From contig NZ_JAZKXX010000035.1 in assembly GCF_045611865.1 (NCBI RefSeq), positions 26,939-90,938 on the forward strand: a stretch of 64,000 nt of DNA, read 5' to 3'. Position numbers and translations under genes: made by a program. The number at the start of each line of letters is the position of its first letter. The stretch's first letter is position 1. Source of the DNA: Methanobrevibacter sp. (lineage in GTDB: Archaea; Methanobacteriota; Methanobacteria; Methanobacteriales; Methanobacteriaceae). The notes under the pieces were generated by a model. The model was given only the letters and a program-made list of their open reading frames with translations, was not told the origin of the DNA and ran no database searches. Of the stretch, positions 61,539 through 63,505 are shown piece after piece.

Positions 61539-61746
61539 TTATATCTTTACACAGTTGTTTTTACAGCCATTAATAACCATTATCGGCTGTTTTTTAAGCA
61601 TTGCATTATTAATACCATCTATATCGGCTGAAGTGGAACCCATACAAATAGAAATGACATTACGCTCCAACATCTCCAACTGCAACACGCCAAACCAATC
61701 CATTAGGACTCATCCCATTACACGGAGCCAATGCTACTTTTTTCAT
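61539..61746 (-). pseudogene. Frameshifted small Cys-rich (DGC-type zinc-binding-like) gene, start-coupled to the thioesterase stop
   Basis: Manual translation: ATG 61746 gives MKKVALAPCNGMSPNGLVWRVAVGDVGA-TAA (61660). The +1 frame continues ERNVISICMGSTSADIDGINNAMLKKQPIMVINGCKNNCVKI-TAA (61539). The ATGA overlap with the upstream stop supports a once-functional gene. Confidence 0.4.
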
Positions 61747-62141
61747 AATTTAAACCCTGTCCCAATAAACTGAGCAATATCTCTTCCACTATCATCAGAC
61801 ACATCAACATTAACAATAGAAGAAGTTCTACCACTTTTTCTACAAGTGGCCTTTGCTATTAATTTATTTCCTTTTGGAGCAGACAAATAATGAATATCAA
61901 CTTGCTGTGCAACAGTTAACTGGTGGATTTGATTAGATAAAACTGCAAAAGCAAAATCGGCCAAGGTAAAAATTACTCCCCCCATTACACCACCATACGC
62001 ATTTTTGTGATCATCTGTTACCTCTAAAGAGCAAATTGCTTCATTCTCAGTCAATTCATCTAAAGTGATGCCAATATTTACTGCAAATTTATCCTTGTAA
62101 AAGAACTCTCTTGCACTTTCTAATGTATCAAAATTAACCAT
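61743..62141 (-). CDS. PaaI-family hotdog-fold thioesterase
   Basis: 132 aa. NAYGGVMGGVIFTLADFAFA motif. Confidence 0.75.
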   Translation of the reverse strand: MVNFDTLESAREFFYKDKFAVNIGITLDELTENEAICSLEVTDDHKNAYGGVMGGVIFTLADFAFAVLSNQIHQLTVAQQVDIHYLSAPKGNKLIAKATCRKSGRTSSIVNVDVSDDSGRDIAQFIGTGFKL

Positions 62142-62179: not shown

Positions 62180-63316
62180 TTAAAATTTATGAACAATGGG
62201 AATTAACCAAACTAAAATTATCGAAAGTAAACAGGATATGATAACTGCTGGAGGATAAAACAAGTACCCCAATATTATACCTATCCCTACAACAATAACA
62301 GTCGAAATTAAAGGAAGATGATTTTCTAAAGCCAATGCAAGAGCAACATTTCCTTTATCTACTTCTTTTAAAGCATTTGCAGATATTATGGATAATAATG
62401 CTACAATAATAAAATCAATTCCATAACATGCCTGAGCTACAAATGAATAAAAGTTTTGTGCTACAAAAATAGACAAATATGGAATCAGAGATAAAACAAA
62501 CATTGATGCGGCGATAGACCACATAACCCTCCCATCAATTTTGTTTACAATAGAAAACAAATTATGATTATAGTTCCAATAATTAAAACAGACAATAAAA
62601 CTAATTGCATAAGCAATGAATTCAAGTTTTAAGTCAAATAATGATTCCCAAGATCCATTTACGGCCATACCTATATCAAGAACAATGACCGTTAGAATAA
62701 TAGCTACAATAGCATCAAATAATGCTTCAAATCGTTCGCTGCTTTCAATTTCAGATTTTGTCATGACAATCATCAAAAACCATAACAAAGTAGCAAAAAC
62801 ACATGAAATATAGATTCCTTGAGGATAAACAGTGTAAGTTACTAAAAATCCTATTAATATTAATAAAACAGGAACGTATCGCCTATAGTCTTTTAAATTG
62901 ATTAATTTGAGTTTTTCATTATAAGGATTTGCACGAACAACCAAATAAGTTGATAATGTGTAAAATATATTTGTTACTAGAAATAACAAACCAAACATGG
63001 TTTCAGCAGCTATTGATGTTGGATGTAGAGAAACCCAACTTGCAAAGTAAGGAATTATCGATATTATAAATATTAAAATTCCATAAACAAACACAACGGC
63101 ATTATCAATCTCATCAACAATTTGAAATAGATTGTGATCATTATACCAAGTGATGAAAATAATTAAAAAACATAATAGATATGTGATATACCTCATATTT
63201 AAACTTAAAATTGCATTTAAGGTTGCTTCAGAAGGTTGAGGTAATTTTAAAACTAAAACAGTAATAATGATTGCAAGAATTGCATCCATAAATGTTTCAA
63301 ATCTATTCGTTTGCAT
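62180..63316 (-). CDS. TMEM175/DUF1211-family K+ channel-like protein with two tandem 6-TM repeats
   Basis: The TM1 signature occurs twice: RFETFMDAILAIIITVLVL (aa 5-23) and RFEALFDAIVAIILTVIVL (aa about 195). The two halves align throughout (WYNDHNLFQIVDEID versus WNYNHNLFSIVNKID; IIPYFASWV versus LIPYLSIFV). Confidence 0.7.
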   Translation of the reverse strand: MQTNRFETFMDAILAIIITVLVLKLPQPSEATLNAILSLNMRYITYLLCFLIIFITWYNDHNLFQIVDEIDNAVVFVYGILIFIISIIPYFASWVSLHPTSIAAETMFGLLFLVTNIFYTLSTYLVVRANPYNEKLKLINLKDYRRYVPVLLILIGFLVTYTVYPQGIYISCVFATLLWFLMIVMTKSEIESSERFEALFDAIVAIILTVIVLDIGMAVNGSWESLFDLKLEFIAYAISFIVCFNYWNYNHNLFSIVNKIDGRVMWSIAASMFVLSLIPYLSIFVAQNFYSFVAQACYGIDFIIVALLSIISANALKEVDKGNVALALALENHLPLISTVIVVGIGIILGYLFYPPAVIISCLLSIILVWLIPIVHKF

Positions 63317-63505
63317 ATAAATAATGATTTAATTTTAATAATTAATAAGTTTTTAAAAATTTATCCAAATAGGAATTTTTAGAAAATATCCTTAAAGGTT
63401 AAAAAAATAGAAAAATAAACAAGGAAATCTATTAACCTAATGTGAACCACCCATCATAATGAGTAGCATCAGATTTTTTTGAAATCTCCCTGTAGAATAT
63501 CAAAC

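Follow-up and report, generated by a model that had tools for sequence, protein, structure and literature searches.

The window analysed here, 64,000 nucleotides of a Methanobrevibacter sp. contig (NZ_JAZKXX010000035.1), carries towards its far end a reverse-strand gene for a membrane protein of the TMEM175 family (Pfam PF06736, formerly DUF1211), in which two repeats, hereafter called A-type and B-type, follow each other in one reading frame (Table 1). In the intergenic region upstream, our reading of the sequence found no clear Shine-Dalgarno element. Downstream, after 38 nt and on the same strand, follows a thioesterase gene with its own AGGTG ribosome-binding site, which occupies this place in 16 of 18 orthologue loci and is better conserved (84-90% identity) than the channel (70-78%). 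A gene for F420-0:gamma-glutamyl ligase, located upstream, is a neighbour in this window only, and neither of the two enzymes suggests a function for the channel.

Table 1. Features of the fused TMEM175 locus and of the split pair in the same genome
Feature	Position	Strand	Basis
Fused two-repeat TMEM175 gene, 378 codons plus TAA stop (62180..62182)	62180..63316	-	ORF list, translation
Repeat I, A-type, residues 1-189	62750..63316	-	Pfam E 5.5e-21; clade A
Repeat II, B-type, residues 190-378	62183..62749	-	Pfam E 6.2e-21; clade B
TM1, residues 3-23, predicted pore-lining helix of repeat I	63248..63310	-	AlphaFold2 helix H3-23; residue table
TM7, residues 194-213, predicted pore-lining helix of repeat II	62678..62737	-	AlphaFold2 helix H194-213; alignment; residue table
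TM6-TM7 linker, residues 186-193 (TKSEIESS), fusion joint	62738..62761	-	Junction comparison, 26 fused proteins and 15 split pairs
Hotdog-fold thioesterase gene	61743..62141	-	Pfam 4HBT, E 2.8e-9
Upstream intergenic region, AT-rich, 189 nt, presumed promoter	63317..63505	-	Direct reading
Split A gene, 191 aa, best own-genome match of the N half	own genome, C31:687..1262		phmmer E 5.6e-43
Split B gene, 189 aa, best own-genome match of the C half	own genome, C31:121..690		phmmer E 1.1e-44

Against PF06736, for which the curated cut-off is 25 bits, the whole protein matched over two stretches (E 3.1e-40, 137 bits) and each half taken alone covered the profile from end to end (positions 1-88 of 88; 75.3 bits for the N half, 75.1 bits for the C half), so that protein and halves alike belong to the family and the prospect of a second half unrelated to the first falls away. 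Aligned with each other by BLASTP, the halves share 54 of 186 residues (29% identity, 55% positives) without a gap (E 5e-29), a similarity that, to judge by the alignment, is far above what hydrophobic composition alone would lead one to expect. This bears out the sequence-only reading, which had described a 378-aa protein of two homologous halves of about 190 residues and asked for just such a self-alignment. The variant TM1 motifs and the downstream blocks that it quoted are likewise present in the protein (RFETFMDAILAI, RFEALFDAIVAI, WYNDHNLFQIVDEID, WNYNHNLFSIVNKID), the blocks reading WYNDHNLF and WNYNHNLF. Weak matches to the Pfam families YrhC and TgpA_N were rejected as they fall below their own cut-offs and are located in hydrophobic helices, and no NCBIfam model matched the fused protein. 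Both halves evolve under purifying selection (dN 0.12-0.21; dS above 1, i.e. saturated; omega about 0.1 or less).

A monomer model that AlphaFold2 produced from 33 aligned fused homologues (mean pLDDT 89.7, pTM 0.87) consists of 12 long helices, six per half, and this count, together with superposition on solved TMEM175 structures, agrees with the six transmembrane helices per half that had been predicted from the letters. When the model was compared with the PDB by Foldseek, the eleven best matches were all chains of human TMEM175 with both repeats aligned (TM 0.67-0.81), headed by 6w8p_B (TM 0.81 over 427 columns at 18% identity); CmTMEM175 (5VRE), the single-repeat channel from a cyanobacterium, matches no more than one of its halves (TMq 0.41, TMt 0.78). 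The two homologous six-helix repeats are thus predicted to lie adjacent, placed like neighbouring protomers and arranged as in animal TMEM175, which upholds the earlier claim of a eukaryote-like two-repeat architecture in an archaeon, and TM1 and TM7 would be the helices that line the pore. A complex prediction with two copies of the fused protein scored 0.30, short of the mark of 0.42, and we count it neither in favour of a dimer nor against one.

The genome itself is a 2.0-Mb draft of 80 contigs with about eight TMEM175-domain genes, whose loci include C62:39660-40241, C8:1282-1866, C31:121-1262, C51:375-1148, C60:38341-38610 and C78:64066-64610. Besides the fused gene and a split pair, the set comprises two genes of about 193 aa that stand alone, two longer genes and one that is apparently broken by stops, a marked paralogue expansion for this family. 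To our minds the most informative fact is the split pair, which lies outside the coordinates that the sequence-only reading dealt with and represents an unfused, coupled version of the two repeats within the same genome, A lying upstream of B on the same strand with stop and start codons overlapping by 4 nt. Next to this pair stand two tandem paralogues of another kind (L002:1509-2399 and 2424-2750, both on the forward strand), each of which begins MHYTGPVYR...CSW.KC.FC with a radical-SAM-like cysteine motif. Among 40 loci from related genomes that we compared, 15 are split pairs; gene order is A then B in every one of them, and the coding regions overlap in 14 (by 4-77 nt when each gene is taken to begin at its first possible start codon) and abut in the remaining one. 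Overlap of this sort is commonly the mark of translational coupling, by which subunits are produced in equal amounts. Split A genes are 55-58% identical to the N half of the fused protein, and so are split B genes to its C half.

For the pore helices we tabulated residues across 26 fused proteins and 15 split pairs (82 A/B-clade sequences) and 97 other family representatives. In TM1 the key positions are held by R5, F9, M10 (in place of the signature Ser), D11, A15, the gate residue I16 and T19, with K24 at the helix end; their counterparts in TM7 are R195, L199, F200 (again at the Ser position), D201, A205, gate residue I206 and T209, with D214 at the helix end. Arg, Asp, Ala, gate Ile, Thr and a Trp show little or no variation, either in the two halves of the 26 fused sequences or in the 30 split ones, and the equivalents of Arg24, Asp30, Ala34 and Trp74 of MtTMEM175 are invariant in both repeats; the TM1 Arg, Asp, Ala, gate and Thr positions are what the fused protein has in common with the single-repeat bacterial channels. 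In characterised members the gate residue is Ile23 (CmTMEM175), Leu35 (MtTMEM175) or I46/I271 (human), and K+ selectivity is conferred by a layer of threonines, Thr38 in MtTMEM175 and T49/T274 in the human channel (PMC7176437, PMC10216561). With a gate Ile that is invariant across the 82 A/B-clade sequences and a Thr38 equivalent kept in 81 of them, both repeats carry the hydrophobic gate and Thr layer of the family, and the presence of both in either pore helix is shared with human TMEM175.

The RxxxFSD signature, by comparison, is kept only in part: Arg and Asp are there, as is Phe (repeat II has Leu instead), and the Ser is lost, with repeat I having Met and repeat II Phe in its place, unlike human TMEM175. 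This position is hydrophobic in all 82 A/B-clade sequences save for Gly or Ala in four split A genes, as against Ser or Thr in 70 of the 97 other representatives, so the non-canonical residues first spotted in this one protein (Met/Phe for Ser, Ala for Gly) are real and hold clade-wide. In both crystal structures, those of CmTMEM175 and MtTMEM175, the Ser belongs to a hydrogen-bond triad, Ser29-His77-Asn95 in MtTMEM175, that positions helices 1-3 (PMC7176437). In the methanogen protein this triad is replaced, namely by M10, D60 and Y78 in repeat I and by F200, Asn and Ile in repeat II. Throughout the clade the substitutes are Met, Phe, Tyr or Ile for Ser, Asn, Asp or Thr for His (a minority of split genes retain the His) and, for Asn, mostly Tyr in A and Ile or Ser in B. 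Over the whole alignment Ser/Thr and His occur together in 66 sequences, are both missing from 93 and are mixed in 33, figures that are descriptive only as the sequences are related.

A second clade-specific feature sits right after the pore helix, where Lys is present without exception in the 41 A-type units and an acidic residue (Glu or Asp) without exception in the 41 B-type units; Glu or Asp is also found in 82 of the 97 other representatives, and the Lys at the outer end of TM1 sets the A-type repeat apart from most homologues. The site adjoins the one at which MtTMEM175 binds hydrated K+ at its outer mouth. From this we infer that A and B may be built to alternate round the pore, forming a ring of two positive and two negative charges at its outer mouth; such a ring may itself enforce the alternation, which fusion of the two genes would have made obligatory.

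Loss of the Ser-His-Asn triad and the changed charge of the outer pore ring are the reasons to consider that the protein may have the TMEM175 fold without a K+-preferring leak, and may instead provide a proton or non-selective cation pathway or have a regulatory or structural task in the membrane. Channels that have been studied lost their activity when the signature motif was mutated (PMC10216561), so that with the signature Ser and its partners replaced, conduction properties ought not to be assumed; moreover, the K+ selectivity of bacterial homologues is weak (PK/PNa 2-5; PMC7176437), and human TMEM175 conducts protons as well (PMC8956256). Against this stand the residues that gate and select, i.e. 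the gate Ile and the Thr38-equivalent layer, and the Arg, Asp and Trp of the inter-subunit network, all of which are invariant in both halves, and the strength of purifying selection across many species points to a molecular function that has been conserved. We regard a protein without the K+-preferring leak as rather unlikely, albeit as the most serious competitor to the cation channel subunit that we favour.

How the fused gene came about was addressed with two trees. In a tree of 196 half-domains, all split A genes and all fused N halves form one clade (A; SH-aLRT 97), all split B genes and all fused C halves form another (B; SH-aLRT 98), and the other single-repeat members of the family fall outside both. 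Within A and B the fused halves sit three levels deep, behind split pairs from four genus-level groups, although support at the root of the A/B subtree is poor for one node, a basal one in clade A (SH-aLRT 32). A more careful tree (LG+C20, with ultrafast bootstrap and SH-aLRT), which compared the fused proteins with concatenated A+B pairs, recovers the 26 fused proteins as a single clade (98/96). Its sister (94/89) is a group of split pairs that belong to the same genus, more distant split pairs branch below, and one change of state is enough to explain the data. Because the half-domain tree is rooted by outgroups and parsimony favours it, we take the split arrangement as ancestral and the fused gene as derived; the direction, fusion rather than fission, appears well supported but is not proven.

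The joint tells the same story at the level of residues. In fused proteins it reads (K/R)xxE(I/F)E(D/S)(T/S)E-RFEA, and free B proteins start M-(E/D)-(T/S)-E-RFEA, which makes the E-S-S-E ahead of RFEA in our protein the counterpart of a free B N-terminus. The linker between TM6 and TM7 measures about 8-12 residues in fused proteins, and can be so short because a six-helix repeat begins and finishes on the same side of the membrane. On the evidence of trees and joint, the gene goes back to a single in-frame fusion of coupled, already diverged A and B genes inside the Methanobacteriaceae.

One locus lies between the two states: in Methanosphaera sp. rholeuAM6 (MVAA01000033.1; L033:376-1542, reverse strand) A and B share one frame, with a TAG directly before the ATG of B, so it is either one substitution away from a fused gene or freshly split, and in the trees it groups with the split pairs. 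An unrelated tandem pair of single-repeat TMEM175 genes occurs in another genus-level group, g12 (L047:304-1671 and L048:360-1727, both forward); its genes are separated by a gap of about 75 nt rather than overlapping, carry Thr at the FSD position and belong to a distant clade, from which it follows that tandem duplication recurs in the family.

Could the two-repeat form nevertheless be the older one, either shared with eukaryotic TMEM175 or original in the Methanobacteriaceae and repeatedly split since? Fission by nonsense mutation would be mechanistically easy, as the lone TAG between the in-frame A and B of rholeuAM6 and several fused-type frames with internal stops illustrate, and the weak basal node of clade A leaves some room at the root. 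With outgroups included, however, the fused halves remain nested behind split pairs in both clades, and because fused genes form a single clade an ancestral fused gene would call for at least three independent fissions. Moreover, of the 27 genus-level groups in the family, 22 yielded no fused form at E<=1e-40. The trees contained prokaryotic sequences, and human TMEM175 was compared by score: repeat I of the human protein is the better match for both halves and repeat II the poorer one (N half, 23.2 and 12.4 bits; C half, 19.9 and 7.9 bits), which gives no collinear N-to-I and C-to-II signal and hence no sign of a fusion inherited in common with the eukaryotic gene. We therefore consider an ancestral two-repeat form very improbable. 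As for the sequence-only reading, which had left it at an independent or an ancestral example of the fusion and suggested a phylogeny of the separate halves, the first option holds and the second does not: the phylogeny recovers clades A and B and makes the fusion a derived one, nested among split pairs of the Methanobacteriaceae, and the human repeats, compared by score, display no I- or II-specific affinity.

Given the nesting among split pairs and the non-collinear similarity, the methanogen fusion arose independently of the eukaryotic one and, as far as the sequences speak, is convergent with the animal fusion and not ancestral to it. Human TMEM175 (PDB 6W8N/6W8P/6WC9) likewise has two homologous six-helix repeats per chain and its fold superposes over both, but it is longer (504 against 378 aa), its inter-repeat linker far exceeds that of the methanogen protein, and it resides in the lysosome, whereas the archaeal plasma membrane is the expected location here. 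CmTMEM175 (5VRE) and MtTMEM175 (PDB 6HD8) are members of the same Pfam family and each half aligns with CmTMEM175 along its length (E 4e-12 for the whole fused protein, 6e-4 for the C half); they are, however, homotetramers of one six-helix chain rather than two diverged repeats covalently joined. The direct evolutionary source is to be seen in the coupled A-B pairs (C31:121..1262 in the own genome; L034-L046 elsewhere), which have the same clade-specific residues and differ in making two polypeptides from overlapping genes instead of one chain.

The fused gene is no peculiarity of one assembly. Its closest relatives are named Methanobrevibacter and come nearly all from ruminant or other animal gut assemblies, and the source DNA itself was found in bovine-gut sequencing runs, none of those listed being recorded as RNA. 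The databases hold hundreds of near-full-length relatives, labelled only 'TMEM175 family protein' or 'DUF1211 domain-containing protein', with orthologues at 70-86% identity in many assemblies. A survey of 314 Methanobacteriaceae genomes with the fused protein as query found the gene intact in at least 54 of them (about 65 full-length frames), namely in 34 of 102 genomes of its own genus-level group, 17 of 26 of a second and 3 of 8 of a third, among them complete single-contig genomes such as G210; a Methanosphaera genome carries a truncated copy. Some genomes have a pair of fused paralogues, of which one reaches at least 70% identity and the other 47-56%. By this reconstruction the fused gene went on to spread, and to duplicate, in lineages of Methanobrevibacter and Methanosphaera; split pairs are still present, one of them in the genome studied here.

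Full-length fused-type frames interrupted by one to four stops were also seen (G249:C141:12827-13942, G297:C133:7687-8751, G260:C22:26397-27524, G038:C10:62742-63860), and these may have decayed into pseudogenes or represent a secondary splitting of the fused gene. A contig of 2690 bp labelled Agathobacter sp. MAG (L065, JAXJTU010000084.1) contains a fused gene with the same identity to our query as that of an uncultured Methanobrevibacter (L066); it was binned with a Firmicutes genome and is probably a mis-binned methanogen contig and not a case of transfer.

That the fused frame is an assembly or sequencing artefact, a frameshift joining adjacent genes of a metagenome-assembled genome, might be suspected of an 80-contig draft and of split pairs whose overlapping frames are one indel away from fusion, but it is refuted by the recurrence of the frame in assemblies made independently: it is uninterrupted in more than 100 non-redundant proteins (376-381 aa, 71-86% identity) from separate assemblies and sources, the intact frames just described include that of the single-contig G210, the fused linker is conserved, unlike the termini of split pairs, and the fused genes form a clade of their own.

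Beyond the archaea, a search of 1.84 billion cluster representatives returned two-repeat forms as 2 of the best 150 clusters. One (379 aa) is the fused clade itself, with one member labelled Methanosphaera; the other (394 aa) includes a protein of Furfurilactobacillus siliginis (WP_057808584.1, 395 aa) that aligns with the methanogen protein from end to end at 29% identity, and four further clusters of such Lactobacillaceae relatives turned up among 5.8 billion proteins. In the tree the two halves of the Lactobacillaceae protein group with each other and with further single-repeat representatives, at a distance from clades A and B, and they retain Ser or Thr at the FSD position, which identifies them, as judged by this placement, as the product of an independent duplication and fusion. 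A metagenomic protein (P0320, 437 aa) has two Pfam TMEM175 stretches as well. A profile search for longer proteins, based on a single-repeat alignment, spanned 413-2000 aa, above the 333-412 aa in which two-repeat forms lie, and yielded, besides P0320, mostly single TMEM175 domains joined to other domains. All in all, the two-repeat layout recurs in prokaryotes.

This has to be set against the prevailing description, cited as established knowledge by the sequence-only reading and indeed stated in reviews and structure papers, that prokaryotic TMEM175 channels have one six-helix repeat and form tetramers, whereas the animal ones have two repeats and form dimers (PMC10216561, PMC7176437, bioRxiv 10.1101/2024.11.01.621492). 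Our full-text literature searches, in which coverage of journals was incomplete, found no description of a two-repeat or heteromeric prokaryotic TMEM175 and no paper on split A-B pairs, so that the two-repeat form is apparently undescribed in the literature searched. Such proteins are common in their own lineage, as the survey demonstrates, but we are not aware of a description.

Taken together, we think it probable that the gene encodes a functional two-repeat TMEM175 cation channel subunit of a ruminant-gut Methanobrevibacter, which stems from fusion of a coupled A-B pair and works as a dimer with pseudo-four-fold symmetry. In mechanistic terms, separate A and B proteins would assemble as an alternating A2B2 tetramer, and the fused chain would fix that arrangement, so that two copies make a homodimer with a pseudo-four-fold pore of TM1 and TM7 helices like that of human TMEM175. 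The gate residues I16 and I206 and the Thr layer of T19 and T209 would then make up a leak pathway through the cytoplasmic membrane with a preference for K+. The likely product is a cation leak channel in that membrane, dimeric and with pseudo-four-fold symmetry. More tentatively, and with rather less confidence than we have in the fusion and the channel, we suggest that the Methanobacteriaceae may preserve all stages of the passage from four-fold to two-fold symmetry: stand-alone genes, an obligate A2B2 channel whose Lys/Glu pair enforces alternation, and the fused dimer. If true, this would mean that prokaryotic TMEM175 includes a heteromeric class not described before, and that nature has here repeated the step from which the lysosomal channel of animals arose.

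A link to Parkinson's disease is known for TMEM175, a non-canonical K+/H+ channel. Duplication with fusion of channel subunits is a familiar route. For this reason, and since similar bacterial cases exist, the surprise is moderate rather than high. What our findings do mean is that the review statement of single-repeat homotetramers in prokaryotes and two-repeat dimers in animals only is incomplete, and that an archaeal lineage seems to have made the animal-type architectural step independently, with the precursor A-B pair surviving in the same genomes. No physiological role is known for any prokaryotic TMEM175 (PMC10216561), and a protein of 378 aa without organelle targeting offers a small, tractable system. 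Such a system would lend itself to the questions of how pore-helix asymmetry originated and affects gating and selectivity, and whether there are heteromeric TMEM175 channels in prokaryotes.
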